Notes under the pieces: model-generated
The model's input: the letters and a program-made list of their open reading frames with translations, nothing else
What the model was told of the DNA's origin: nothing
Database searches by the model: none
Position numbers and translations under genes: made by a program
In this document: positions 5,106 through 63,514 of the stretch, in pieces
Numbering within the stretch: position 1 is the stretch's first letter
Layout of the letters: every line of letters begins with the position of its first letter
Assembly: GCF_965641715.1 (NCBI RefSeq)
Contig: NZ_OZ282453.1
DNA length: 64,000 nucleotides
Source: Escherichia coli
GTDB lineage: Bacteria > Pseudomonadota > Gammaproteobacteria > Enterobacterales > Enterobacteriaceae
Reading direction: 5' to 3' (one strand)

Positions 5106-5934
5106 GACGATGCCCTCCGCTGATATTCAGGAAACGGTGAATATGAAGATTAGCCTTATCCGCCAGACGAATACGTTCAGCCTGCAAGTTAAGAAGGGTT
5201 TCTACCAGAACCTGATGCGCCTGCGGATCCGAAAGAGTTACCTTGCGCAGAGCACGTAGTGCAGTTGTTACATAGCTGAGTTTATGTAAGTCTTCATCAT
5301 TCAGACGAGTGAGGGCTGGGACAGTAGCCATGATGGCAGCCTCCGTATGCAATGGATAACTTCCACCACCGGAAACGCCAATTTCGCTGGTGGTGAACTG
5401 AGCAGGGTTGGCGTAACCGGCGCATACGGAAACCGGCGCACCTTTCGGTGCCCCCACCCAGCCCACCATAATTTGGGTATAGCTGAGTTGTAGCAACAAA
5501 AAAGACGCTAACGCGCCAATTGTCGCCGTATGCAATTCCAGGACGCCAATCCCGGCACCCGCTTTATAAGGTGCCTGAACAGTGTAACGTCCCGGAATGG
5601 CAGAATCAATGTGCTGGTGGTCCTTCACACTCAACAAAATCACGCCTGAATTTCCACAAAGGGCTAAAGCACTCATGCGGGTAGTCTTTGCGAAGATAGA
5701 TAACGCGCTGTGTTTCTGGTTCCCAACGAATAACATGGACATAAAGCCCTCTTCCGTCACGAAACCAGCGGTTAAGTTCCCGCACAACTCGCCCCCCACA
5801 GTCAGGTAAAGTTCTCTGTGGTTACTTACAGCCAGGTGATTTGGTAATCTGCATTCATGCCGTAACAACAGGTGTTCAGCGACACTGACCACCAGCTGTT
5901 GCGACAAACGGTTATTTGCCGTTAAACTGTTCAT
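5098..5934 (-). CDS. Hypothetical phage protein (early right operon)
   Basis: 278-aa ORF, co-oriented and overlapping neighbours; no motif recognised. Confidence 0.35.
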   Translation of the reverse strand: MNSLTANNRLSQQLVVSVAEHLLLRHECRLPNHLAVSNHRELYLTVGGELCGNLTAGFVTEEGFMSMLFVGNQKHSALSIFAKTTRMSALALCGNSGVILLSVKDHQHIDSAIPGRYTVQAPYKAGAGIGVLELHTATIGALASFLLLQLSYTQIMVGWVGAPKGAPVSVCAGYANPAQFTTSEIGVSGGGSYPLHTEAAIMATVPALTRLNDEDLHKLSYVTTALRALRKVTLSDPQAHQVLVETLLNLQAERIRLADKANLHIHRFLNISGGHRHA

Positions 5935-19735: not shown

Positions 19736-19905
<170 letters not shown>

Positions 19906-20028: not shown

Positions 20029-20115
20029 GCGAAGGTGGCGGAATTGGTAGACGCGCTAGCTTCAGGTGTTAGTGTCCTTACGGACGTGGGGGTTCAAGTC
20101 CCCCCCCTCGCACCA
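20029..20115 (+). tRNA. leuQ: tRNA-Leu (anticodon CAG)
   Basis: 87-nt sequence GCGAAGGTGGCGGAATTGGTAGACGCG ... CCCTCGCACCA; anticodon loop CTTCAGGTG. Confidence 0.9.
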
Positions 20116-20143
20116 AAAACCACGTTGATATTGCTCGCACTGG

Positions 20144-20230
20144 GCGAAGGTGGCGGAATTGGTAGACGCGCTAGCTTCAGGTGTTAGTGTTCTTACGGAC
20201 GTGGGGGTTCAAGTCCCCCCCCTCGCACCA
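20144..20230 (+). tRNA. leuP: tRNA-Leu (anticodon CAG), one substitution relative to the flanking copies
   Basis: 87-nt copy; variable-arm difference GTGTTCTTACGG versus GTGTCCTTACGG. Confidence 0.9.
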
Positions 20231-20264
20231 AACGAGGCGATATCAAAAAAAGTAAGATGACTGT

Positions 20265-20351
20265 GCGAAGGTGGCGGAATTGGTAGACGCGCTAGCTTCA
20301 GGTGTTAGTGTCCTTACGGACGTGGGGGTTCAAGTCCCCCCCCTCGCACCA
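20265..20351 (+). tRNA. leuV: tRNA-Leu (anticodon CAG)
   Basis: 87-nt copy identical to the first. Confidence 0.9.
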
Positions 20352-49453: not shown

Positions 49454-49657
49454 ATGTTTGGTAACTTAGGACAGGCAAAAAAATATCTCGGCCAGGCGGC
49501 GAAGATGTTGATTGGCATTCCAGACTACGACAACTACGTCGAGCATATGAAGACCAACCATCCCGACAAGCCGTACATGAGCTATGAAGAATTCTTCCGC
49601 GAACGCCAGAACGCGCGCTACGGCGGCGATGGTAAAGGCGGTATGCGCTGTTGTTAA
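49454..49657 (+). CDS. yjiX: YjiX (DUF466 small protein)
   Basis: 67 aa ending GGMRCC; K-12 order btsT-yjiX-yjiA. Confidence 0.75.
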
Positions 49658-49667
49658 TGGAGAGAGC

Positions 49668-50624
49668 ATGAACCCGATTGCAGTTACCCTACTCACCGGT
49701 TTTTTAGGCGCGGGAAAAACCACCCTGCTGCGCCATATTCTTAACGAACAACACGGCTACAAGATTGCCGTGATTGAAAACGAATTCGGCGAAGTCTCCG
49801 TTGATGATCAACTGATTGGCGACCGCGCCACGCAGATCAAAACGCTGACCAACGGCTGCATCTGCTGTTCGCGCTCCAACGAGCTGGAGAACGCGCTACT
49901 CGACCTGCTGGATAATCTCGACAAGGGCAATATTCAGTTCGATCGTCTGGTCATTGAATGCACCGGCATGGCCGATCCTGGCCCGATTATTCAGACCTTT
50001 TTCTCCCATGAGATTTTATGCCAGCGCTACCTGCTGGACGGCGTGATTGCGCTGGTGGATGCGGTACATGCCGATGAGCAGATGAACCAGTTCACCATCG
50101 CCCAGTCCCAGGTTGGCTACGCCGACCGTATTCTGCTGACTAAAACCGACGTCGCAGGCGAAGCAGAAATACTGCGTGAACGTCTGGCACGCATCAACGC
50201 CCGTGCACCGGTCTACACCGTCACCCACGGCGACATCGACCTGGGCCTGCTGTTCAACACTAACGGTTTTATGCTGGAAGAAAACGTCGTCAGCACCAAA
50301 CCGCGTTTCCACTTTATCGCGGATAAACAAAACGATATTTCGTCGATTGTGGTGGAACTGGATTACCCGGTAGATATCAGCGAAGTTTCCCGCGTGATGG
50401 AAAACCTGCTGCTGGAATCGGCGGATAAACTGCTGCGTTACAAAGGGATGCTGTGGATTGACGGCGAACCTAATCGCCTGCTGTTCCAGGGCGTCCAGCG
50501 CCTCTACAGCGCCGACTGGGACCGCCCATGGGGCGATGAAAAACCGCATAGCACGATGGTGTTTATCGGGATTCAGTTGCCGGAGGAAGAGATTCGGGCG
50601 GCGTTTGCGGGGTTGAGGAAGTAA
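49668..50624 (+). CDS. yjiA: CobW/COG0523-family GTPase YjiA
   Basis: 318 aa from MNPIAVTLLTGFLGAGKTTLL (Walker A); CxCC motif GCICCS. Confidence 0.8.
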   Translation: MNPIAVTLLTGFLGAGKTTLLRHILNEQHGYKIAVIENEFGEVSVDDQLIGDRATQIKTLTNGCICCSRSNELENALLDLLDNLDKGNIQFDRLVIECTGMADPGPIIQTFFSHEILCQRYLLDGVIALVDAVHADEQMNQFTIAQSQVGYADRILLTKTDVAGEAEILRERLARINARAPVYTVTHGDIDLGLLFNTNGFMLEENVVSTKPRFHFIADKQNDISSIVVELDYPVDISEVSRVMENLLLESADKLLRYKGMLWIDGEPNRLLFQGVQRLYSADWDRPWGDEKPHSTMVFIGIQLPEEEIRAAFAGLRK

Positions 50625-50710: not shown

Positions 50711-50902
50711 TTATTGCGCGTGAATACCTGGATCTGGCAAAAAATTGCCGCGTTTGGCGTCAGACCATGCTTCGCTACCAGAAGCAGGAATGTCGCTGTA
50801 ATCAATGTCTTCGTCGGATTTATTAACCAAAGCCATGAGTTCAGCTTCTTGCTGCACATCAAGTGTGTAGAGTGTGCCCCGTTTATGTTTAACCATGCTC
50901 AT
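50711..50902 (-). CDS. Small ORF with possible antitoxin-like motif (weak)
   Basis: 63 aa; DEDIDYSDIP ... WSDAKRG is reminiscent of BrnA-like antitoxins; no partner toxin seen. Confidence 0.2.
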   Translation of the reverse strand: MSMVKHKRGTLYTLDVQQEAELMALVNKSDEDIDYSDIPASGSEAWSDAKRGNFLPDPGIHAQ

Positions 50903-50941: not shown

Positions 50942-51943
50942 TTATTTCAGCCATCCAGGCACGTTATATTCTGAGACATTCTCAATGGAATATGCATCTC
51001 TCCTGTCAGAACCTTTCTTACACTTCAACTCATTGAACCCCCATTTACCCTCTCTATTGGAATAAAATACAGTATATTTATCAGTATTAAACCCGAAATA
51101 TCTTTCATCCGGACGTGAAATATTCAACTCTCCACATTTAACCTGACTGCGCCATTCAAAATCTATGGTGCTTTTTAAAACGTAGTACGAAATATTCTCT
51201 ACATTTTTTGAAGCAAAAACTACTAAAATAGTAGATACTATAAATGCTCCGGCAAGTATAAATAACCTATACACACTTAATTTAGTCCCCAGAGTTAAAA
51301 AAGCAAAATAGATAATAAGTTGCATCAACATGAAGAAAATCAACAAAAAAGCCATCCCTTTCCAGAAATACTCAACCCATGGTGATAGTGTGATATTTAG
51401 ATTACTCAAACTTAAAAATAAACTGGAAGAAAAACTACTTGAGAATAAATATATAATTGGTATGACAGCTAAAGTCATAGACCTAATAATCATTAATTTT
51501 TTATTATTTTTAAATTCCAACTCTAATATAATAAAAACACCTCCCAGAAAAACAAATACTGAAAAAGCACTAAAAACGTATACAGAGACACTGACTGGAA
51601 AAATATTAATTGAAAGCACAAAAAACAAAAATATAAACCATGCAATAAGTGAACACCAGGCAGCACAACTATTCAAACTGTTTTTATTACTGAACTTGAC
51701 AAAATACCCCATATATTCTGTAATGCGATTTTCTTCCACTAATGCATAAAGAAGAATACCAACAAAGCACAGAGATAAAATAATATCTTTCCACAGATAT
51801 TTATAAGGGAGAAGTATAAAACCAAGGAGTAGATAAATTAGCAGAATGACATCTAATGCCTTAGTACAAAAATATTGTTTCACTCCTTGCAAGAACCGAA
51901 CATTCTCCATATGAATCCTTCTCCAGCTATTGATGAAACTCAA
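50942..51943 (-). CDS. AT-rich polytopic membrane protein (about 6-7 TM) with about 80-aa C-terminal soluble tail; occupies the mrr slot
   Basis: 333-aa ORF with visibly low GC (AT-rich); multiple long hydrophobic segments; no motif recognised. Confidence 0.5.
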   Translation of the reverse strand: MSFINSWRRIHMENVRFLQGVKQYFCTKALDVILLIYLLLGFILLPYKYLWKDIILSLCFVGILLYALVEENRITEYMGYFVKFSNKNSLNSCAAWCSLIAWFIFLFFVLSINIFPVSVSVYVFSAFSVFVFLGGVFIILELEFKNNKKLMIIRSMTLAVIPIIYLFSSSFSSSLFLSLSNLNITLSPWVEYFWKGMAFLLIFFMLMQLIIYFAFLTLGTKLSVYRLFILAGAFIVSTILVVFASKNVENISYYVLKSTIDFEWRSQVKCGELNISRPDERYFGFNTDKYTVFYSNREGKWGFNELKCKKGSDRRDAYSIENVSEYNVPGWLK

Positions 51944-52050: not shown

Positions 52051-54483
52051 ATGGCGGAACTGAACCTAAGTAACCTGACGGAAGCAGACATCATTACCAA
52101 ATGCGTTATGCCAGCCATTCTCAATGCAGGCTGGGACAACACAACGCAAATCAGACAGGAGGTCAAACTCCGGGACGGTAAAGTCATCGTACGTGGTAAA
52201 GTTGCGGCACGCAGAACGGTAAAATCTGCTGACATCGTGCTGTACCACAAGCCAGGCATTCCCTTAGCCGTGATTGAAGCAAAAGCCAACAAACATGAAA
52301 TTGGCAAAGGGATGCAACAGGGCATTGAATATGCGCGCCTGCTGGACGTTCCTTTTGTTTTTGCCACCAATGGTGATGGCTTTATCTTCCGCGATGCCAC
52401 CGCAGCTGAAGGTGAATGCCTTGAAAAGCAAATAACGCTGGATGACTTCCCCTCCCCCGCTGAACTCTGGCAAAAATTCTGCCTCTGGAAAGGATACACA
52501 CAAGCTCAGCTTCCGGTGATTACTCAGGACTATTACGACGATGGTAGCGGTAAATCGCCTCGTTATTATCAACTTCAGGCAATCAACAAAACCATTGAAG
52601 CCGTCTCCAACGGGCAAAACCGCGTTCTGCTGGTCATGGCGACCGGAACAGGGAAAACCTATACCGCATTCCAGATCATCTGGCGCCTGTGGAAATCAAA
52701 AAATAAAAAACGCATTCTGTTCCTTGCCGATCGCAACATTCTGGTCGACCAAACCAAAAATAATGATTTCCAGCCATTTGGTACGGCAATGACCAAAGTC
52801 AGCGGACGCACCATTGATCCCGCTTATGAAATTCACCTCGCGCTCTATCAGGCTATAACTGGCCCGGAGGAAGACCAAAAAGCGTTTAAACAAGTCGCAC
52901 CAGATTTCTTCGATCTGATCGTGATCGACGAATGCCATCGCGGCAGCGCATCCGAAGACAGCGCCTGGCGAGAGATCCTTGATTATTTCAGTTCCGCCAC
53001 CCAAATTGGCTTAACCGCCACGCCAAAAGAGACGCATGAAGTCTCCAGCACGGATTACTTCGGCGATCCGGTTTACGTCTACTCGCTAAAAGAAGGGATC
53101 GAAGACGGCTTCCTCGCCCCTTATAAAGTTGTCCGTGTTGATATTGATGTTGATCTGCAAGGCTGGCGCCCAACCAAAGGGCAAACTGACTTAAACGGCG
53201 AAGTGATCGACGATCGTATCTATAACCAGAAAGATTTCGATCGCACGATGGTAATCGACGAACGCACAGAACTGGTTGCCAGAACCATTACCGACTACCT
53301 CAAGCGCACCAATCCGATGGATAAAACCATCGTCTTCTGTAACGACATCGATCATGCAGAACGTATGCGCCGCGCCCTGGTTAATCTCAACCCGGAGCAG
53401 GTGAAAAAGAACGACAAATACGTCATGAAAATCACCGGCGATGATGAAATTGGCAAAGCTCAGTTGGATAACTTCATCAACCCGAAAAAACCGTACCCGG
53501 TTATCGCGACCACTTCAGAGCTGATGACCACCGGTGTGGATGCTAAAACCTGCAAACTGGTAGTACTGGACCAGAACATCCAGTCGATGACCAAATTCAA
53601 GCAGATTATCGGTCGTGGTACACGCATCGACGAACGTTACGGCAAACTCTGGTTTACCATCCTCGACTTTAAAAAAGCCACCGAACTGTTTGCCGATGAG
53701 CGTTTCGATGGCATTCCCGAAAAAGTCATGGATACCACACCAGAGGATATCGCCGATCCAGACTCTGATTTTGAAGAGAAACTCGAAGAAATCAGCGAAC
53801 ATGTCGACGAACAGGTAACAGGCGTTGATGAACCGCCTGCGCCACCATACCAGGTTAAAGATACCGATGATGTCGGCCCACTTCCGGAAGAAGACGAGAA
53901 GAAAATCCGCAAGTTTCACGTCAACGGTGTAGCGGTGGGCGTTATTGCCCAGCGTGTTCAGTATTACGACGCCGACGGTAAACTGGTTACCGAATCCTTT
54001 AAAGATTACACTCGCAAAACACTGCTCAAAGAATATGCCTCGCTGGATGACTTTACCCGCAAGTGGCAGGACGCCGATCGCAAAGAAGCGATCATTCACG
54101 AGCTGGAGCAACAGGGGATCATCTGGGAAGTACTGGCAGAAGAAGTCGGTAAAGATCTCGACCCATTCGACATGCTTTGCCACGTAGTGTATGGTCAGCC
54201 GCCGTTAACCCGCAAAGAGCGCGCCGAGAACGTGCGCAAGCGGAACTACTTCACAAAATACTCTGAAGCAGCGCAAGCCGTGCTCGATAATCTGCTGGAT
54301 AAATACGCCGATGCGGGCGTACAGGAGATCGAAAGTATTCAGGTGCTGAAACTTAAGCCATTCGACAGCATGGGCACCTTACCGGAGATTATTAAAACCG
54401 GATTTGGCGACCGTAACGGGTATAATCAGGCGCTCAGCGAGCTGGAAAACGAAATCTACCAATTACCGCCCCGCTCTGCTTAA
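52051..54483 (+). CDS. hsdR: Type I restriction enzyme R subunit (non-EcoKI size class)
   Basis: 810 aa; PD-(D/E)xK-like N-terminus; helicase motif [14 protein letters not shown] and motif II DECHRG. Confidence 0.85.
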
Positions 54484-54549
54484 CAACTCTCTTTTGTGCC
54501 TTCTGCAACCATCATGTTGCAGAAGGCCTTGTTTTTCATGGAATACAAC

Positions 54550-56019
54550 ATGTCTATCAGCTCAGTAATCAAATCATTACAAGATATTATGCGCAAAGAT
54601 GCCGGTGTGGACGGCGATGCGCAGCGTCTCGGTCAGCTCTCCTGGCTGCTATTTTTGAAAATCTTCGATGCCCAGGAAGAGGCGCTGGAACTGGAGCAGG
54701 ATAACTATCAATATCCGATCCCACAGCGTTATTTGTGGCGCAGTTGGGCCGCCAACGCGCAGGGCATTACCGGTGATTCCCTGCTGGAATTCGTTAATGA
54801 TGATCTGTTCCCGGCGTTGAAAAACCTCACTGCGCCTATCGATAAAAACCCACGCGGCTACGTGGTAAAGCAGGCGTTCAGCGATGCCTATAACTATATG
54901 AAAAACGGTACGCTACTGCGTCAGGTGATCAACAAGCTGAACGAAATTGACTTTACCAGCGCCAGCGAACGCCATCTGTTTGGTGATATTTACGAACAGA
55001 TCCTTAAAGATCTGCAATCTGCGGGCAATGCTGGCGAATTCTATACTCCACGCGCCGTCACTCGCTTTATGGTGGATCGCGTCGATCCGAAACTCGGCGA
55101 ATCCATTATGGACCCGGCCTGCGGTACGGGCGGTTTTCTTGCCTGCGCATTTGATCATGTAAAGAACAAATACGTGAAGAGCGTCGCCGATCATCAGACG
55201 CTGCAACAACAGATCCACGGTGTTGAGAAAAAACAGCTTCCGCACCTGCTGGCGACCACCAATATGCTGCTGCACGGCATTGAAGTACCGGTACAAATTC
55301 GTCACGACAACACCCTGAACAAACCGCTTTCCTCCTGGGATGAACAACTGGATGTCATTGTTACCAACCCGCCGTTTGGTGGCACGGAAGAAGATGGTAT
55401 TGAGAAGAACTTTCCAGCAGAGATGCAAACCCGCGAAACGGCGGATTTGTTCCTGCAACTGATTGTGGAAGTACTGGCGAAAAACGGTCGCGCGGCGGTG
55501 GTATTGCCGGATGGCACACTATTTGGCGAAGGCGTTAAAACCAAAATCAAAAAGCTACTTACCGAAGAGTGCAACCTGCATACCATCGTGCGCTTACCGA
55601 ATGGTGTGTTTAACCCCTATACCGGCATTAAAACCAACCTGTTGTTCTTTACCAAAGGTCAGCCAACCAAAGAGATTTGGTTCTATGAGCATCCGTATCC
55701 GGCGGGCGTGAAAAACTACAGCAAAACCAAGCCGATGAAGTTTGAAGAGTTTCAGGCGGAGATCGACTGGTGGGGTAACGAGGCCGATGGTTTTGCCAGC
55801 CGCGTCGAGAATGAGCAAGCGTGGAAAGTCAGCATTGATGACGTGATTGCGCGTAACTTCAATCTGGATATTAAAAACCCACATCAGGCGGAAACCGTCA
55901 GCCATGATCCGGACGAACTGTTAGCGCAGTATGCAAAGCAACAGGCGGAGATCCAGACGCTGCGTAATCAACTGCGCGATATTCTCGGCGCTGCGCTGTC
56001 TGGCAAGGAGGTTAACTGA
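54550..56019 (+). CDS. hsdM: Type I restriction-modification N6-adenine methyltransferase M subunit
   Basis: Motif IV NPPFGG; SAM-binding DPACGTGGFL; start could be 54496 or 54538. Confidence 0.85.
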   Translation: MSISSVIKSLQDIMRKDAGVDGDAQRLGQLSWLLFLKIFDAQEEALELEQDNYQYPIPQRYLWRSWAANAQGITGDSLLEFVNDDLFPALKNLTAPIDKNPRGYVVKQAFSDAYNYMKNGTLLRQVINKLNEIDFTSASERHLFGDIYEQILKDLQSAGNAGEFYTPRAVTRFMVDRVDPKLGESIMDPACGTGGFLACAFDHVKNKYVKSVADHQTLQQQIHGVEKKQLPHLLATTNMLLHGIEVPVQIRHDNTLNKPLSSWDEQLDVIVTNPPFGGTEEDGIEKNFPAEMQTRETADLFLQLIVEVLAKNGRAAVVLPDGTLFGEGVKTKIKKLLTEECNLHTIVRLPNGVFNPYTGIKTNLLFFTKGQPTKEIWFYEHPYPAGVKNYSKTKPMKFEEFQAEIDWWGNEADGFASRVENEQAWKVSIDDVIARNFNLDIKNPHQAETVSHDPDELLAQYAKQQAEIQTLRNQLRDILGAALSGKEVN

Positions 56020-57776
56020 TGAGTGTGGAAAAGCTGATCGTTGATCATATGGAAACCTGGACCTCGGCGTTGCAAACCCGTTCCACCGCCGGGCGCGGCA
56101 GCTCCGGTAAGATTGATTTGTATGGTATTAAGAAATTGCGTGAGCTGATTCTGGAACTGGCGGTGCGCGGTAAACTGGTGCCGCAGGATCCGCATGATGA
56201 ACCGGCGTCGGAGCTGCTGAAGCGTAATGAAGAACGGAAAAAAGAATTAGCGCGCAATAATGGTATGAAAACCACAGCAAGCACTAATATCCATGGAAAT
56301 GAATATTATATCGATACCCCCGAAAAGTGGTCATGGATAAGACTTGGTAATTTAGCTAAATTCATCGATTACCGAGGAAAAACACCACATAAAAAAGAAA
56401 ATGGTATAAGGCTTATAACAGCAAAAAATATCAGAAAGGGCTATATTGATCTCAATCCAGAAGAGTTCATATCTGAAGAAGATTACATATCATGGATGAC
56501 AAGAGGCTTTCCTAAATGTGGTGATATTTTATTCACAACTGAAGCACCACTGGGGAATGCAGCGATTATTGATTTAGACGGAAAGTTCGCTCTTGCTCAA
56601 CGTTCTATCTGTTTTCAATGGCATACTCCAGAGATAAGCCCTTTTATGCTTATTCAAATCCTGGCGATCCCCTTCCAGTCACAACTAAGTGACAAATCTA
56701 CAGGCATGACCGCAACAGGAATAAAAGCGTCTAAGTTAAAAGAGATCCCTGTTATTTTACCACCTTACCAAGAACAAATACGTATTGTATCCAAAGTACA
56801 GGAGTTCATGTCCCTATGTGACCAACTGGAACAGCAATCCCTGACCAGTCTGGACGCACATCAGCAACTGGTTGAAACCCTGTTGGAAACACTTACAGAC
56901 AGCCAAAACGCCGAGGAACTGGCTGAAAACTGGGCGCGTATTAGCGAGCATTTCGACACCCTATTTACCACTGAAGCCAGCGTGGATGCGTTAAAACAGA
57001 CCATTCTGCAACTGGCCGTAATGGGTAAACTTGTGCCGCAGGATCCGAATGACGAACCAGCCTCTGAACTGCTCAAACGAATTGCGCAGGAAAAAGCTCA
57101 ACTGGTGAAAGAAGGGAAAATAAAAAAACAAAAACCGTTGCCGCCAATTAGCGATGAGGAAAAGCCGTTTGAACTGCCGGAAGGTTGGGAGTGGTGTCGA
57201 TTGGGTTCTATTTATAATTTTTTAAATGGATATGCCTTTAAAAGTGAGTGGTTTACCTCTGTCGGTTTACGTTTATTGCGGAATGCTAACATTGCTCATG
57301 GAGTTACCAATTGGAAAGATGTTGTACATATACCAAATGACATGATATCCGATTTTGAAAATTATATTTTGTCAGAAAATGATATTGTTATTTCATTAGA
57401 CAGACCAATTATTAATACCGGGTTAAAATATGCTATCATTAGCAAATCAGATTTACCCTGTTTACTGCTCCAACGAGTAGCAAAATTTAAAAATTATGCA
57501 AACACTGTGTCTAACTCCTTCTTGACAATATGGTTGCAATCTTATTTCTTCATAAATTCAATTGATCCTGGAAGAAGTAATGGAGTTCCACATATATCTA
57601 CGAAACAGTTAGAGATGACACTATTTCCTCTTCTACCGCAAAGTGAACAAGATCGTATTATTTCAAAAACGGATGAATTAATACAAACCTGTAATAAACT
57701 GAAATATATTATCAAAACCGCCAAACAAACCCAACTGCACCTTGCAGACGCACTGACTGACGCAGCGATAAACTAA
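56019..57776 (+). CDS. hsdS: Type I restriction-modification specificity subunit with two AT-rich target-recognition domains
   Basis: 585 aa; duplicated conserved spacer (ELAVRGKLVPQDPHDEPASELLKR and LAVMGKLVPQDPNDEPASELLKR) flanking low-GC variable regions. Confidence 0.8.
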   Translation: MSVEKLIVDHMETWTSALQTRSTAGRGSSGKIDLYGIKKLRELILELAVRGKLVPQDPHDEPASELLKRNEERKKELARNNGMKTTASTNIHGNEYYIDTPEKWSWIRLGNLAKFIDYRGKTPHKKENGIRLITAKNIRKGYIDLNPEEFISEEDYISWMTRGFPKCGDILFTTEAPLGNAAIIDLDGKFALAQRSICFQWHTPEISPFMLIQILAIPFQSQLSDKSTGMTATGIKASKLKEIPVILPPYQEQIRIVSKVQEFMSLCDQLEQQSLTSLDAHQQLVETLLETLTDSQNAEELAENWARISEHFDTLFTTEASVDALKQTILQLAVMGKLVPQDPNDEPASELLKRIAQEKAQLVKEGKIKKQKPLPPISDEEKPFELPEGWEWCRLGSIYNFLNGYAFKSEWFTSVGLRLLRNANIAHGVTNWKDVVHIPNDMISDFENYILSENDIVISLDRPIINTGLKYAIISKSDLPCLLLQRVAKFKNYANTVSNSFLTIWLQSYFFINSIDPGRSNGVPHISTKQLEMTLFPLLPQSEQDRIISKTDELIQTCNKLKYIIKTAKQTQLHLADALTDAAIN

Positions 57777-57996
57777 TTCCCTCGCCCTCAAAAAACCAAT
57801 AAAGCGGCTAAATAGCCGCTTTATTCACATCACCAAAAATTATATTTCACGCTAAACTTCATCTTATTTTCATTAATTTTTAGCTGGACTTCCCCTGTAT
57901 TTACTGATGATATATCCAGGTATTTAGCGCGGTGCGGATGTGCGCCAACACACCCGCACCGCTAATCACAATCCCTATTTCTAAGGAATAGTAATC

Positions 57997-58338
57997 ATGA
58001 CTGACACGCATTCTATTGCACAACCGTTCGAAGCAGAAGTCTCCCCGGCAAATAACCGTCAATTAACCGTGAGTTATGCGAGCCGCTACCCGGATTACAG
58101 CCGTATTCCCGCCATCACCCTGAAAGGTCAGTGGCTGGAAGCCGCCGGTTTTGCCACTGGCACGGCGGTAGATGTCAAAGTGATGGAAGGCTGTATTGTC
58201 CTCACCGCCCAACCCGCCGCCGCCGAAGAGAGCGAACTGATGCAGTCACTACGCCAGGTGTGCAAACTGTCGGCGCGTAAACAAAAGCAGGTGCGGGAAT
58301 TTATTGGGGTGATTGCGGGTAAACAGAAAGTCGCCTGA
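57997..58338 (+). CDS. symE: SOS-induced toxin-like protein SymE
   Basis: 113 aa starting [34 protein letters not shown]; matches recalled K-12 SymE; adjacent to hsdS as in K-12. Confidence 0.8.
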
Positions 58339-58384
58339 TACATTGACCCGGTAGCGCCAGTGCTACCGGGTATTATTCGCCGCG

Positions 58385-60478
58385 TTATACCAAGGCGCTC
58401 TCCATCTGTTTTTCAAATGCCTGACGAATTAATCCCATAATGTAAGGAAGTTGTGCGAGGTCACTGAAACCAATTTCCACATCACCATTACCCCAGCGCC
58501 CAACATTTGTCACATCTTTGGCAATACCTTTCGGATCGACCAGTTCATGAAACTGCATATTAAGCGACAATCGCAGTCGGCTTTTTTGCGGCACAACATC
58601 AACAAAATTCGTTTCCGCTTTAAACGCAATATATAGCTTCAATACTTCCTGCGTGATCCCTGCGTCCAGGCGCATAACTTCATCGCGAAGATGATCGAAT
58701 AACACCCGGCTATGCGAACCATCAGCAAGAAAAGGATAATCACTCAGGCTGTAACTGGTTTTGTTTTCAGGCTGTCCCCGATAAACAGCTAAAACCTCTT
58801 CAGGAAGAGAAGGCGCTTGCCAGACCTGAACCGCGAGATCGGCCAGACGATCGGCTCGGGCGTGAATGGCGGCTTCATCCCATTTTTCGCACTGTCCAAG
58901 ACCGATATTCAAATAGAGCGGGCTATGCTTAAAGCCGTCTTCAATATCGCGTTTTTCTGCGAAAGGTCTGTCACTGTAACGGGAGTTATAGCGCGTTAAA
59001 GTGAGATTCCCCAACGTATGCAACAGTTCTTTATGAATACGCTGCCAGTCGCTTCCCAGCTCTTCGCGCCATTTAGCCGACAAATTTTCGTTCTGCGGCA
59101 TAATATGTTCAATCGTAAACTCTTCCACGCGCTCTCTGCGTTTATCGTTTTCCAGTCGTCGTAACCAGTAGCTGCGACTACGGAAGTTATAGAGATCGCG
59201 AACTTTTAATTCCCGTTTAAATTCATCATCGTTGGGGAAACGACGATATGAAGGTAGATTCAAAAAATGTACCTGAATACTTTCCAGATAATTTTCTTTA
59301 TTAATAACTTTATAAAAAGTGGCAAATGTCTTGTTCAAAGAATTTGTCGGAATTGCACATACTGCACGGCGGAAAACATAAGATTCAATTAAACGAATTA
59401 TGCTCAGGAAATCTTCGTGAGACAAAACGCCATTTTTATAGTCATGATAAAGCGCCAGTAAGAAAGGATACACCACATCGACCTTTAACTCGCGCAAATC
59501 CTGAAAAGCCGTAGCAAGCAATTTGTCACTTTCTTTTCCCAATGCCATTGCACAGTAATACTCCGCGTAGATATGAATATCTTCAACCAGCCGATCTACG
59601 CCTTTTTCAGCAACACTCTGGCTGCGGGCATGGAGTTTAAATGCCTCATAGACTTCATCTGTCCGAGGGATCTCCCCCGTTTTTACCGTCAGATAATGAC
59701 GCATAAAACTGTCAAAATATTCGCTGTAACCTTGCTGACCAAAGGCGACTTCCATTGGACGCCAGTGATCTTCATACAACCGGGTTTGATGCTCTGGTTC
59801 GAGGCCCATCAGAATAAAATTGCGCACCAGATCGGCCTGACTTAACGCCTTACCGGTGGAGTTCATACTTTCAAAAATCAGTTGCGGATTATCCTGACCA
59901 CGATTAAGCGCCACATCGACAATTAATAACTTTGCTAACCCACGACATAAGGGGATCAAGTCATCACCGAGTTTGGCAATTTGTTCATCAAAGAAAGTAA
60001 AGTTTTCCATTATTCGATGGGAATAGTTTTCTGGCATTGGTCTTTGTTTTATTAACGCCAGTAAACTGTCTTTATCAGTCTCGGTCAGCAGTAATTTAAA
60101 ACCTTTCTCGCCGGACTCATAAGGATTGAGCAAATAATAATTACGCAATTTCATTGCCGAAAAGCCATCAAAAACTTCGTCTTCGCCAAGATGGCGCGAT
60201 AAAGCCTCAATCAGCAACATTGCGGTCGTCAGCCGCTGCTGACCATCAATGACCAGCAACGGAGAAATACCAGAAACCTGATACAATCCCTGCTCTATAT
60301 AAACAACCGAACCGATAAAATGCGCTGATATATCGTCACGCTTTCCTGCACGAATGATGTCGTCCCAAAGTTGCCGACATTGTTGCCCGGTCCATGAATA
60401 AGTCCGTTGATAAATGGGAATAACAAACTGCTGCGAACGTTTTAAAAAATCGAGTAGGCGAGCTTCTGTAGCTTTCAT
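58385..60478 (-). CDS. GmrSD-family type IV (modification-dependent) restriction endonuclease candidate (DUF262 plus DUF1524)
   Basis: 697 aa; N-terminal DUF262 motifs (IPIYQRTYSW, DGQQRLTT); C-terminal His-Me finger-like TIEHIMPQ. Confidence 0.65.
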   Translation of the reverse strand: MKATEARLLDFLKRSQQFVIPIYQRTYSWTGQQCRQLWDDIIRAGKRDDISAHFIGSVVYIEQGLYQVSGISPLLVIDGQQRLTTAMLLIEALSRHLGEDEVFDGFSAMKLRNYYLLNPYESGEKGFKLLLTETDKDSLLALIKQRPMPENYSHRIMENFTFFDEQIAKLGDDLIPLCRGLAKLLIVDVALNRGQDNPQLIFESMNSTGKALSQADLVRNFILMGLEPEHQTRLYEDHWRPMEVAFGQQGYSEYFDSFMRHYLTVKTGEIPRTDEVYEAFKLHARSQSVAEKGVDRLVEDIHIYAEYYCAMALGKESDKLLATAFQDLRELKVDVVYPFLLALYHDYKNGVLSHEDFLSIIRLIESYVFRRAVCAIPTNSLNKTFATFYKVINKENYLESIQVHFLNLPSYRRFPNDDEFKRELKVRDLYNFRSRSYWLRRLENDKRRERVEEFTIEHIMPQNENLSAKWREELGSDWQRIHKELLHTLGNLTLTRYNSRYSDRPFAEKRDIEDGFKHSPLYLNIGLGQCEKWDEAAIHARADRLADLAVQVWQAPSLPEEVLAVYRGQPENKTSYSLSDYPFLADGSHSRVLFDHLRDEVMRLDAGITQEVLKLYIAFKAETNFVDVVPQKSRLRLSLNMQFHELVDPKGIAKDVTNVGRWGNGDVEIGFSDLAQLPYIMGLIRQAFEKQMESALV

Positions 60479-60574: not shown

Positions 60575-60739
60575 TCACTCCACATCCTCCCTGCGTAACC
60601 CAATATCCCTCAACCGCTCATCACTCATCTGCTGTAACACTCGTCGGGTCTGCATTTGCCACCGCCAACGCCTCATCGCCTGCCAGAGTTGCACAAGTCT
60701 GATAAACGGCGTTTTGGCTTTGTTTTCGTGAAATTCCAT
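60575..60739 (-). CDS. yjiS: DUF1127 small protein YjiS
   Basis: 54-aa ORF MEFHENKAKTPFIRLVQLWQAMRRWRWQMQTRRVLQQMSDERLRDIGLRREDVE; below the ORF-track size cut-off. Confidence 0.55.
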   Translation of the reverse strand: MEFHENKAKTPFIRLVQLWQAMRRWRWQMQTRRVLQQMSDERLRDIGLRREDVE

Positions 60740-60915
60740 CTGCTGCCTCCTCATCTTTCAGAGGCTTCATCATCCGCCTTCTGGCAGTTCACAATACAGA
60801 TGCAAATATTAGTTTTATTTAACATACAGACAGGTTAAAACAGCATCTGCATCCGGTTTTTTAGCTTCATCTGTACCGGTTTTTCTCTCTGTATGGTCTA
60901 AATAAGGAATACAGC

Positions 60916-62328
60916 ATGACGCGTTATCAACATCTGGCAACTCTGCTTGCCGAGCGGATTGAGCAAGGGCTGTATCGTCACGGGGAGAAATTGCCGTCGG
61001 TGCGCAGCTTAAGTCAGGAGCACGGCGTCAGCATCAGCACCGTGCAGCAGGCGTATCAGACGCTGGAGACGATGAAGCTCATCACTCCGCAGCCGCGTTC
61101 GGGGTATTTTGTCGCACAACGTAAAGCCCAGCCGCCAGTGCCGCCGATGACGCGTCCGGTGCAGCGCCCGGTGGAAATTACCCAGTGGGATCAGGTACTG
61201 GATATGCTGGAGGCGCATAGCGACAGTTCCATTGTTCCGTTAAGCAAAAGCACGCCGGATGTCGAAACGCCCAGCCTGAAACCACTCTGGCGGGAGCTAA
61301 GCCGGGTGGTACAGCATAATCTGCAAACCGTTCTCGGTTATGACTTGCTAGCCGGTCAGCGGGTATTGCGCGAGCAGGTTGCCCGCCTGATGCTCGACAG
61401 CGGCTCGGTGGTCACCGCCGATGACATCATTATCACCAGCGGCTGCCATAACTCGATGTCGCTGGCGTTAATGGCGGTGTGTAAACCGGGCGATATTGTC
61501 GCGGTCGAATCCCCCTGTTATTACGGTTCGATGCAGATGCTGCGCGGCATGGGCGTGAAAGTGATTGAAATCCCAACCGATCCAGAAACTGGCATCAGCG
61601 TTGAAGCGCTGGAACTGGCGCTGGAACAGTGGCCGATTAAAGGCATCATTTTGGTGCCAAACTGTAATAATCCGCTGGGATTTATTATGCCGGACGCGCG
61701 CAAACGGGCCGTTCTCTCTCTCGCTCAGCGTCATGATATTGTGATTTTTGAAGATGATGTCTACGGCGAACTGGCAACGGAGTATCCGCGCCCGCGGACC
61801 ATTCATTCATGGGATATCGACGGGCGAGTGCTGTTGTGCAGCTCGTTCAGTAAAAGTATTGCTCCAGGCCTGCGCGTGGGTTGGGTCGCACCGGGGCGTT
61901 ATCACGATAAACTGCTGCATATGAAATACGCCATCAGCAGCTTTAATGTGCCGTCCACGCAAATGGCGGCAGCAACGTTTGTGCTGGAAGGTCACTATCA
62001 TCGCCATATCCGGCGGATGCGGCAGATCTATCAGCGCAATTTGGCGCTTTATACCTGCTGGATACGGGAATATTTTCCCTGCGAAATCTGTATTACGCGC
62101 CCGAAAGGCGGATTTTTACTGTGGATAGAATTGCCTGAACAGGTCGATATGGTCTGCGTCGCGCGGCAGCTGTGCCGCATGAAAATCCAGGTGGCGGCAG
62201 GCTCGATTTTCTCAGCTTCCGGCAAATACCGTAACTGCCTGCGCATCAACTGCGCTTTGCCGCTCAGCGAAACCTATCGCGAAGCACTGAAGCAAATTGG
62301 CGAGGCCGTGTATCAGGCAATGGAATGA
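60916..62328 (+). CDS. yjiR: MocR-family regulator (GntR HTH fused to aminotransferase-like domain) YjiR
   Basis: 470 aa; N-terminal GntR HTH and class I aminotransferase-like body. Confidence 0.8.
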   Translation: MTRYQHLATLLAERIEQGLYRHGEKLPSVRSLSQEHGVSISTVQQAYQTLETMKLITPQPRSGYFVAQRKAQPPVPPMTRPVQRPVEITQWDQVLDMLEAHSDSSIVPLSKSTPDVETPSLKPLWRELSRVVQHNLQTVLGYDLLAGQRVLREQVARLMLDSGSVVTADDIIITSGCHNSMSLALMAVCKPGDIVAVESPCYYGSMQMLRGMGVKVIEIPTDPETGISVEALELALEQWPIKGIILVPNCNNPLGFIMPDARKRAVLSLAQRHDIVIFEDDVYGELATEYPRPRTIHSWDIDGRVLLCSSFSKSIAPGLRVGWVAPGRYHDKLLHMKYAISSFNVPSTQMAAATFVLEGHYHRHIRRMRQIYQRNLALYTCWIREYFPCEICITRPKGGFLLWIELPEQVDMVCVARQLCRMKIQVAAGSIFSASGKYRNCLRINCALPLSETYREALKQIGEAVYQAME

Positions 62329-62444
62329 ATTCGAATCAGTGGCGAGGCCCCTGATTTCCTCTCACGAATCGCCTGTGACTCGTTTTATCTTTGCAGGGGC
62401 ATCACCACGTTCCAGCATGGCTTAGGCAAAGTGTGCTTTGTTCA

Positions 62445-62545
62445 TACCGGATGCGGCGTGAACGCCTTATCCGGCTTACAAATCGCGCAAATTCAATAGA
62501 TTGCAGAGGTAATGTAGGTCTGATAAGCGTAGCACATCAGGCAGC
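62445..62545. repeat. REP/BIME elements
   Basis: CCGGATGCGGCGTGAACGCCTTATCCGG and GTAGGTCTGATAAGCGTAGCACATCAGGC units. Confidence 0.55.
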
Positions 62546-62569
62546 TTTGCGTTTGTCATCAGTCTCTGA

Positions 62570-63514
62570 TTAGTACTCGATCCATGGATCGCGCTTGCTT
62601 TCAGGCAAGGGTTGCTCTAATGCCTGCATTTGCTCTGCCGAAAGTCCAGTATATCGTTGTATCCATTCAGGATCCGCACCGTTCTGCAAAAGCAATCTAA
62701 GGAGGCGTTGTTCCCCTTCTTCTTTCCCCTTTTCCATCCCTAACAGCCATCCATCATTATGAATTCGCTCTGCAATCGTCATTATTCGCTCCCTGTGTTG
62801 TGGCATTCGACGGGTAAGTTCACTGATAAACTCATTAAAACGCGCTTCATCGCCAGTCAGTAAAATGTAATTTAACAGCGCGGTTATCTGGCTGTCATTA
62901 GCGCACCCTGTAACCAGTAATACTGCCAGTTGATCAATAAGCCCCATTAGATCGCGCTGGCGAATATGCTTTTGGATCAACTCCAACAGGGCGACTCTGC
63001 GGTGCTGCACAATCTCGTCGTCTGGCACGACAGTGATATCCACCAGCGGGAACGCGGCATTATAAAGTTTCCGTGCGGTAGTCGGGTCGGCAAATTCGTC
63101 CAGCCAGCACAGGGACCAGGGGTAAGGACTACGGCTACCGTGATAAAACAGCATCGGGATGACCAGCGGTAGCTGCCGGCGTTTATCATGCTCGATATGG
63201 CGCTGCATCACCGCCATGGAATAGCGCATCAGGCGAAACGCCATATGAATATCCTCGCGGCTCTGATGTTCAATCACTACGTAAATATAACCATCACCTT
63301 CACGGGTCTTTACCGACCACAGAATATCGGAGTGTAGCGCCCGCAATTTTTCATCGACAAAGCTGGCTGACTCCAGTTTTAAGCTGTCGAGATCGCACAG
63401 TTCACGTAAATCTTTGGGTAAGTGGATCTCCATAAAATCCCGCGCGGTGTCAGGGTGAGTGAGAAAGGATTTAAATAATGCGTCATGTGGCGTGCTGGTC
63501 GTGAAGTTTGTCAT
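62570..63514 (-). CDS. rpnD: Rpn-family recombination-promoting nuclease (YhgA-like), apparently intact RpnD
   Basis: 314-aa uninterrupted ORF; corresponds to the K-12 yjiP/yjiQ locus. Confidence 0.65.

Follow-up and report, generated by a model that had tools for sequence, protein, structure and literature searches.

[quoted passage not shown] Expression of K-12 symE is LexA-dependent, and its LexA box has a heterology index (HI) of 7.9 (PMC11228462). The tisB/istR-1 and dinQ/agrB pairs resemble symER in combining a LexA-repressed toxin gene with a small RNA that blocks translation (PMC4147584), but their toxins are small membrane peptides and IstR-1 is not a cis-antisense RNA, whereas SymE is a soluble protein of 113 aa with an AbrB/MazE fold. 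Ibs/Sib shares with symER a cis-encoded antisense RNA that lies over the translation initiation region; however, Ibs/Sib occurs in five copies per genome, where discrimination between copies is obviously useful (PMC2943612), whereas symER is single-copy in E. coli. Residues 20–71 of SymE fall into the fold class of the swapped-hairpin DNA-binding domain of MazE/AbrB (Kawano 2007, PMC1891008; PMC11894785), but the roles differ: MazE, the partner of MazF, acts as a protein antitoxin and represses transcription, whereas SymE works without a protein partner and inhibits growth itself.

We analysed a stretch of 64,000 nucleotides of E. coli DNA (hereafter, the window, to which all coordinates refer unless another locus is named) that carries a counterpart of the K-12 locus. 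With a probability of about 0.9, this counterpart is a complete SOS-controlled symE/SymR module, governed by LexA, SymR and Lon, encoding a DNA-compacting SymE and located at a junction between restriction cassettes. The locus, consisting of symE, SymR and a LexA box, is real, complete, ordinary and already described, and none of the matches that identify its genes comes close to chance level. That this strain possesses the whole symE/SymR/LexA-box module is of little importance beyond correct annotation and the coordinates of SymR.

symE between type IB hsd genes and a GmrSD-like gene

The genes around symE, and the two repeats on either side of it, are the following.

49584–50624: yjiA (CobW-family GTPase), from a profile match
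52051–54483, plus strand: hsdR, type IB (EcoAI family), from profile matches; RefSeq homologues bear the same name
54496–56019, plus strand: hsdM, as the maximal open reading frame, with the likely ATG at 54550; RefSeq homologues bear the same name
56019–57776, plus strand: hsdS; RefSeq homologues bear the same name
57798–57825: hairpin AATAAAGCGGCTAAATAGCCGCTTTATT 3' of hsdS, a 12-bp stem followed by GGTTTTTTGA on the minus strand
57997–58338, plus strand: symE coding sequence, 113 aa, with the AbrB/MazE-like domain at residues 20–71
58346–58371: inverted repeat ACCCGGTAGC-GCCAGT-GCTACCGGGT, between the stop codons of symE and the convergent GmrSD-like gene, read from the sequence
58385–60478, minus strand: GmrSD-like type IV restriction gene, intact, 697 aa, with GmrSD_N, GmrSD_C and a C-terminal DUF5655, convergent with symE
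60575–63514: yjiS (DUF1127), yjiR and rpn, from profile matches

Judged by the sequence of HsdR, the hsd system of the window is of type IB (EcoAI/EcoEI family), because the protein passes the EcoAI-family model, fails the K-12-type model and carries the Pfam domain EcoEI_R_C (E 5.9e-37). The HsdR of the window (810 aa) scored 1192 bits on the EcoAI/FtnUII equivalog NF046051 (cutoff 550) and 217 bits on the K-12-type equivalog NF008521 (cutoff 729), whereas K-12 HsdR (1170 aa) showed the reverse pattern, with 274 bits on the former and 1739 on the latter. Classically, membership of such a family is defined at the bench, by complementation of subunits, cross-reaction of antibodies or hybridisation of DNA. 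K-12 and the window thus differ on both sides of symE: in K-12 the gene lies between hsd genes of type IA and a downstream mcrBC, in the window between hsd genes of type IB and the GmrSD-like gene.

A preliminary description of this DNA had placed symE directly downstream of hsdS, as in K-12, and beside hsd genes of another family than those of K-12, and both statements proved correct. The two genes lie on the same strand, with 220 nt between the end of hsdS at 57776 and the start of symE at 57997, and HsdR is of type IB (EcoAI), not type IA; in the K-12 RefSeq table, hsdR-hsdM-hsdS-symE likewise occupy one strand, with an hsdS–symE gap of 227 nt. The interval originally assigned to the gene, 57780–58338, comprises the hsdS–symE spacer plus symE, and its sole long open reading frame is the intact symE of 113 codons with an ATG start at 57997–58338 on the plus strand.

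The encoded protein agrees with K-12 SymE at 107 of 113 residues (95%) and exceeds the curated cutoffs of both SymE family models, namely Pfam PF08845 SymE_toxin (E 1.4e-21, 76.7 bits, cutoff 29) and the NCBIfam equivalog NF010128 ‘endoribonuclease SymE’ (226.5 bits, cutoff 132, covering residues 1–112 of 113); it matched no PADLOC model. The label ‘toxin’, echoed in the preliminary description by the wording ‘toxin-like’, is now disputed, both by Thompson et al. 2022 as summarised in PMC11894785 and through the K-12 RefSeq product name, which now reads ‘nucleoid-associated protein SymE’.

The locus as a whole, lying between yjiA and yjiS/yjiR, is by its sequence the immigration control region (ICR) of E. 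coli, a restriction locus of variable content that is bounded by the conserved genes yjiA and yjiN (PMC12707154). The named genes follow the same order as in RefSeq genomes. The flanking core genes hpa, btsT and yjiA reach 99.0% identity with E. coli chromosomes, which marks the DNA of the window as E. coli.

In the place that mrr occupies in K-12, between yjiA and hsdR, the window contains an AT-rich insert (29–35% GC; 50711–50902 and 50942–51910, both on the minus strand) comprising a 63-aa open reading frame, called ‘antitoxin’ in RefSeq, and a second one for a multi-pass membrane protein of 322 aa, listed as ‘hypothetical protein’. Pfam gave no hit for either frame, and the longer one also had no NCBIfam or PADLOC hit. 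Of the 5426 complete E. coli genomes, 513 match the AT-rich segment, and 409 of these cover at least 80% of it. On the other side of symE, the GmrSD-like gene, for which the best PADLOC model is ‘Orf5’ (738 bits), forms one open reading frame of 697 aa in the window, whereas its counterpart is split or truncated in O157:H7, 214-4, U14-1 and 19SZHZ869Rt. The Rpn-family gene (YhgA-like, Transposase_31; 62570–63514, minus strand) is likewise intact, at 314 aa, whereas O157:H7 strain H2495 has a frameshifted copy and LST200A a truncated one; rpn has been counted among the toxin-antitoxin systems of the ICR (2025 EcoSal review, PMC12707154).

For comparison, we used an alignment of eight symE alleles from different contexts and 88 metagenome loci that were found by an exact 26-mer in SymR stem-loop 2, a sample that favours a conserved stem-loop 2 and in which diversity at that site is biased low. 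As seen in the sequence, the symER module is set off by hairpins on both sides, towards hsdS upstream and towards the convergent GmrSD-like gene downstream. The hairpin 3' of hsdS is terminator-like on the minus strand, while on the plus strand its stem ends in TTTATT; it occurs only in the IB-context alleles of the alignment and belongs to the type IB flank, outside the conserved symER block. The inverted repeat after symE is common only to alleles with a GmrSD-like downstream neighbour and probably serves both genes as a terminator; it belongs to the flank on the GmrSD side.

SymR, its promoter and the LexA box

The regulatory elements around the start of symE are the following.

57866–57925, plus strand: symE upstream region, starting with ATTTTTAGCTGGACTT, conserved across all three hsd contexts in which symE occurs (see below)
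57902–57921: predicted LexA (SOS) box TACTGATGATATATCCAGGT, with the core CTG-N10-CAG at 57904–57919, from a pattern match and a matrix
57926–58002, minus strand: SymR antisense RNA, 77 nt, Rfam RF01809, with its 5' end at 58002, 6 nt inside symE
57983–57987, plus strand: symE Shine-Dalgarno sequence AAGGA, 9 nt 5' of the ATG, in and adjoining the apical loop of SymR stem-loop 1, read from the sequence
58010–58015, minus strand: symR promoter −10 hexamer TAGAAT (ATTCTA on the plus strand), inside symE codons 5–7, assigned by identity to K-12

SymR had been expected on the minus strand over the 5' end of symE, at about 57960–58040. The strand and the overlap were borne out by a full-length match to RF01809 (93.1 bits, gathering score 61, E 3.3e-18, model positions 1–77 of 77), which is also the top hit of a whole-window Rfam scan, but the position was not: the RNA lies at 57926–58002, about 35 nt further upstream, and the guessed span shares 43 nt with it and extends too far into the open reading frame. 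This is the exact equivalent of the annotated K-12 symR, with the same length of 77 nt and the same start base relative to the ATG. The first 6 nt of SymR overlap the symE frame, its 5' end AGUCAU being the complement of the first six bases of that frame, and the other 71 nt span the Shine-Dalgarno sequence and the 5' leader. The match thus describes a cis-antisense RNA of about 77 nt over the Shine-Dalgarno sequence and start codon of symE, and what symE harbours of symR is the promoter rather than the RNA body.

The predicted fold of SymR consists of two hairpins with an energy of −41.4 kcal/mol, as against −20.5 ± 2.9 for shuffled sequences (z = −7.2). Stem-loop 2, which in K-12 is interrupted by an A x C mismatch, is a perfect 15-bp stem in the window. 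In the Rfam register, stem-loop 1 contains two non-standard pairs, A11xG29 (flagged by the search) and C17xA23 (read by eye), and it forms a stable hairpin in a shifted register. SymR of the window differs from that of K-12 at 9 of 77 positions, eight of them in stem-loop 1 and mostly in the loop and the Shine-Dalgarno region. None of the seven non-K-12 RefSeq loci inspected carries SymR as an annotated feature.

Further Rfam matches over the spacer, to sraL (24.8 bits against a gathering score of 39), L20_leader and IS128, fell far below their gathering scores, were driven by the terminator hairpin of hsdS and were dismissed as chance. Elsewhere in the window, the above-threshold hits, at 5386–5574 (minus strand), 19807–19889 (minus strand) and 20029–20348 (plus strand), were to a C4 antisense RNA with an adjacent isrK, to naRNA4 and to three tandem tRNA genes with identical scores. 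C4 antisense RNA together with isrK is typical of the immunity regions of P1/P7- or P4-like prophages.

The preliminary description had also proposed a search for the SymR promoter and for a LexA box upstream of symE, and at the level of sequence both are present. A −10 hexamer identical to that of K-12, TAGAAT, occurs at 58015–58010, 7 nt ahead of the 5' end of SymR, with CATTCT at 58009–58014. In K-12, mutation of the CATTCT hexamer abolished SymR, so that this hexamer drives SymR (PMC1891008), and the window is base-for-base identical to K-12 over 58003–58060. The assignment of the symR promoter, and with it the place of this promoter inside symE, is made because of this identity to an experimentally defined element, since no convincing −35 hexamer is present and a simple consensus scan for sigma-70-like promoters of symE or symR returned none on either strand. 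Candidates placed by eye did not convince either, neither TTCTGC (17-nt spacer) as the −35 element of symR nor TGGACT...TGATAT and TTAATT...TGTATT as −35/−10 pairs of symE. The symE promoter must lie within 57866–57925.

The LexA box upstream of symE, a CTG-N10-CAG sequence 76 nt 5' of the ATG, is in the same place as in K-12 and departs from the K-12 yjiW box at a single position, with C instead of A immediately ahead of CAG. We scored it with a matrix built from 25 E. coli boxes of the Fernandez de Henestrosa 2000 and Lewis 1994 compilations, excluding yjiW; all scores are indicative only. At 16.3 bits it is the highest-scoring 20-mer in the whole 64 kb, compared with 17.4 bits for the K-12 box, and falls inside the range of known E. 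coli LexA boxes on the same matrix (12.7 to 26 bits); it is a predicted site of mid-to-weak strength. At the changed position, C ranks second in frequency (11 of the 25 matrix boxes), and the 26-mer of the LexA region found in the window is the majority allele of the metagenome sample (50 of 88 loci), in which the K-12 allele is rare (6 of 88). At the level of sequence, the symE promoter region therefore includes a LexA box. A second candidate, CTGTATTTACTGATGA (57896–57911), has a good left half, CTGTAT, where K-12 reads CCATAT, and was rejected as it lacks the CAG right half. The second-best LexA-like 20-mer of the window, TATTGGAATAAAATACAGTA (51055–51074; 15.9 bits), resembles the dinG box and lies inside the 322-aa hypothetical open reading frame; it may be a chance match in AT-rich DNA.

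Proposed control and activity of SymE

By homology with K-12, LexA would hold transcription of symE low, constitutively made SymR would pair with the leader, Shine-Dalgarno sequence and start codon of the symE mRNA and block its translation, and Lon would degrade what SymE is made despite this repression. Upon DNA damage and cleavage of LexA, as in the K-12 model, symE mRNA would outrun SymR. The accumulated SymE would then bind DNA non-specifically via its MazE/AbrB-like domain and compact the nucleoid, such that growth would stop at high dose.

The same regulation would also suit a SymE that acts as an endoribonuclease-like toxin, cleaving mRNA and serving the recycling of damaged RNA after the SOS response. 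SymE co-purifies with ribosomes and its over-production lowers RNA levels (Kawano 2007, PMC1891008), and the name endoribonuclease is still in use in reviews (PMC4147584) and in PGAP/NCBIfam. However, by the account of Thompson et al. 2022 given in PMC11894785, SymE has no RNase activity and instead binds DNA non-specifically and genome-wide and compacts the nucleoid; the fold of SymE is that of the DNA-binding antitoxin MazE/AbrB, and the K-12 annotation has been changed. Cleavage of RNA is accordingly a possible but rather unlikely activity, and we prefer DNA binding and compaction, which we consider about twice as probable.

A junction of restriction cassettes and a variable SymR loop

The symE block was matched in 2872 of 5426 complete E. 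coli genomes, with a median of one place per genome, leaving about 47% of genomes with no match. Among the matches listed, which are evenly spaced, 10 of 30 cover both flanks of the window, suggesting that about a third of the symE-positive complete E. coli genomes share the arrangement hsd(IB)-symE-GmrSD. The order yjiA-...-hsdR(EcoAI)-hsdM-hsdS-symE-GmrSD-like-yjiS-yjiR is also found in O157:H7, 214-4 and 19SZHZ869Rt. O157:H7 and other strains with EcoAI-family hsd genes resemble the window in this order, which continues to rpn, in both flanks of symE and in the LexA core allele CCAG; they differ in their SymR loop allele, which is not that of the window, and O157 and 214-4 have DUF262/HNH between yjiA and hsdR where the window has the AT-rich pair.

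Such arrangements have been on record for some time. The symER of O157:H7 was already aligned in 2007 (PMC1891008), a comparable ICR consisting of a transposase, a GmrSD homologue, an ‘endoribonuclease’, hsdS/M/R, Mrr and a GTPase was described in APEC O1 (He et al. 2015), and the type IA, IB and ID hsd families of the ICR have been reported to be accompanied by type IV genes and symE symR (2025 EcoSal review, PMC12707154). The position of symE beside type IB hsd genes is therefore nothing new, and symE beside an hsd system different from that of K-12 is a common state in E. coli, not an oddity.

Across contexts, symE follows a type IA hsdS (K-12, 118UI, U14-1), a type IB hsdS (the window, O157) or the hsdR of a third family with the order M-S-R (strain G5), which is probably type ID. 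Homology among the eight aligned alleles extends from about 57866, at ATTTTTAGCTGGACTT, to the symE stop codon, and megablast matches to non-IB genomes begin at query positions 88–90, that is, at 57864–57866 of the window. In alleles adjoining yjiS, homology ends about 20 nt before the symE stop codon and the C-terminal tail is different, and therefore the downstream recombination junction falls within the last approximately 8 codons of symE, not past its stop. These alleles (locus L006, 7137–7475, and some 18 of the metagenome loci) adjoin yjiS directly, no type IV gene intervening, and have a tail ending ...IGVISSKTPR.

The following flank combinations occurred in the metagenome loci.

Upstream type IB, downstream GmrSD: 31 loci
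Upstream third family, downstream yjiS: 14 loci
Upstream type IA, downstream mcrBC: 10 loci
Upstream type IA, downstream GmrSD: 7 loci
Upstream third family, downstream GmrSD: 4 loci
Upstream type IB, downstream yjiS: 2 loci

The combination found in the window, type IB with GmrSD, is thus the commonest among the 88 loci. Because the flank signatures combine freely in this sample, the symER block of about 470 bp is a junction between an upstream cassette, which is hsd of type IA, type IB or the third family, and a downstream one, which is mcrBC, a GmrSD-like gene or absent, and its type IB neighbour reflects no special retention event. The conserved 470-bp block can serve as a landmark for the boundary between hsd and type IV cassettes when ICRs are compared. 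In E. coli LST200A (locus L007, 7001–7185), IS1A truncates symE about 35 codons in, with the LexA box and SymR intact and SymR orphaned.

A functional coupling of symER to the restriction genes, for instance with SOS-triggered SymE shielding or compacting the chromosome under attack by a type I or type IV system that is newly acquired or damaged, would, if real, explain why the module has kept its place next to hsd genes of three families. Double-strand breaks, and with them the SOS response, result from self-restriction, and symE comes after the last hsd gene in the type IA, type IB and third-family contexts; SymE-family genes lie beside restriction-modification systems in other bacteria, too (Kawano 2007, PMC1891008). 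Nevertheless, we consider such coupling highly improbable: symE is served by a promoter of its own, with a hairpin between it and hsdS, about 47% of the complete E. coli genomes lack a match to the symE block, and a recombination junction within a defence island, together with the tendency of toxin-antitoxin modules to gather in such islands (PMC1891008), accounts for the linkage equally well.

The most diverse part of the block is the 7-nt apical loop of SymR stem-loop 1 (57980–57986), 5' of and overlapping the symE Shine-Dalgarno sequence, with a mean pi of 0.43 vs 0.08 at the remaining third-codon positions of symE, about a five-fold excess, and at least 14 alleles among the 88 metagenome loci. 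The purine run of the Shine-Dalgarno sequence is always kept across these alleles, in the eight-allele alignment as in the metagenome loci, despite the variable bases next to it. At the other extreme, the segment of the open reading frame that holds the symR promoter has a mean pi of 0.016 (0.029 at its third-codon positions), the lowest in the block outside the parts affected by the locus search, and of the 87 metagenome loci that are readable at the symR −10 hexamer, 84 retain it.

The possibility that the symER of the window is a silent relic, decayed in regulation or function and hitch-hiking between restriction cassettes that are under selection, is so remote that we set it aside: compared with K-12, the LexA box has moved one base away from consensus, stem-loop 1 has mismatches in the Rfam register and IS1-truncated and stop-codon symE alleles occur in the population, but the symE frame is intact, with 95% identity to K-12, no part of the block is better conserved than the symR promoter region (pi 0.016 vs 0.08 at third-codon positions), the LexA allele is that of the population majority and SymR scores far over its threshold.

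In the metagenome loci, the SymR loop alleles do not track the type of the flanking cassettes and are shuffled among them. The loop might be under diversifying selection, its alleles representing recognition groups, such that the SymR of one allele would pair only slowly with the symE mRNA of another. The Sib RNAs, in which short, highly variable segments determine target recognition (PMC2943612), provide a precedent for a variable loop as the determinant of specificity. We hold this reading to be improbable. If it were true, symER would be an allele-specific module at the junction of swappable restriction cassettes, for example one that penalises certain recombinants or merodiploids. Alternatively, the excess diversity may stem from a lack of constraint, as the two partners always co-vary, from tuning of the strength of the Shine-Dalgarno sequence, or from a mutation-prone single-stranded site. 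The excess diversity of the SymR loop offers a cheap lead on target recognition by cis-antisense RNAs.
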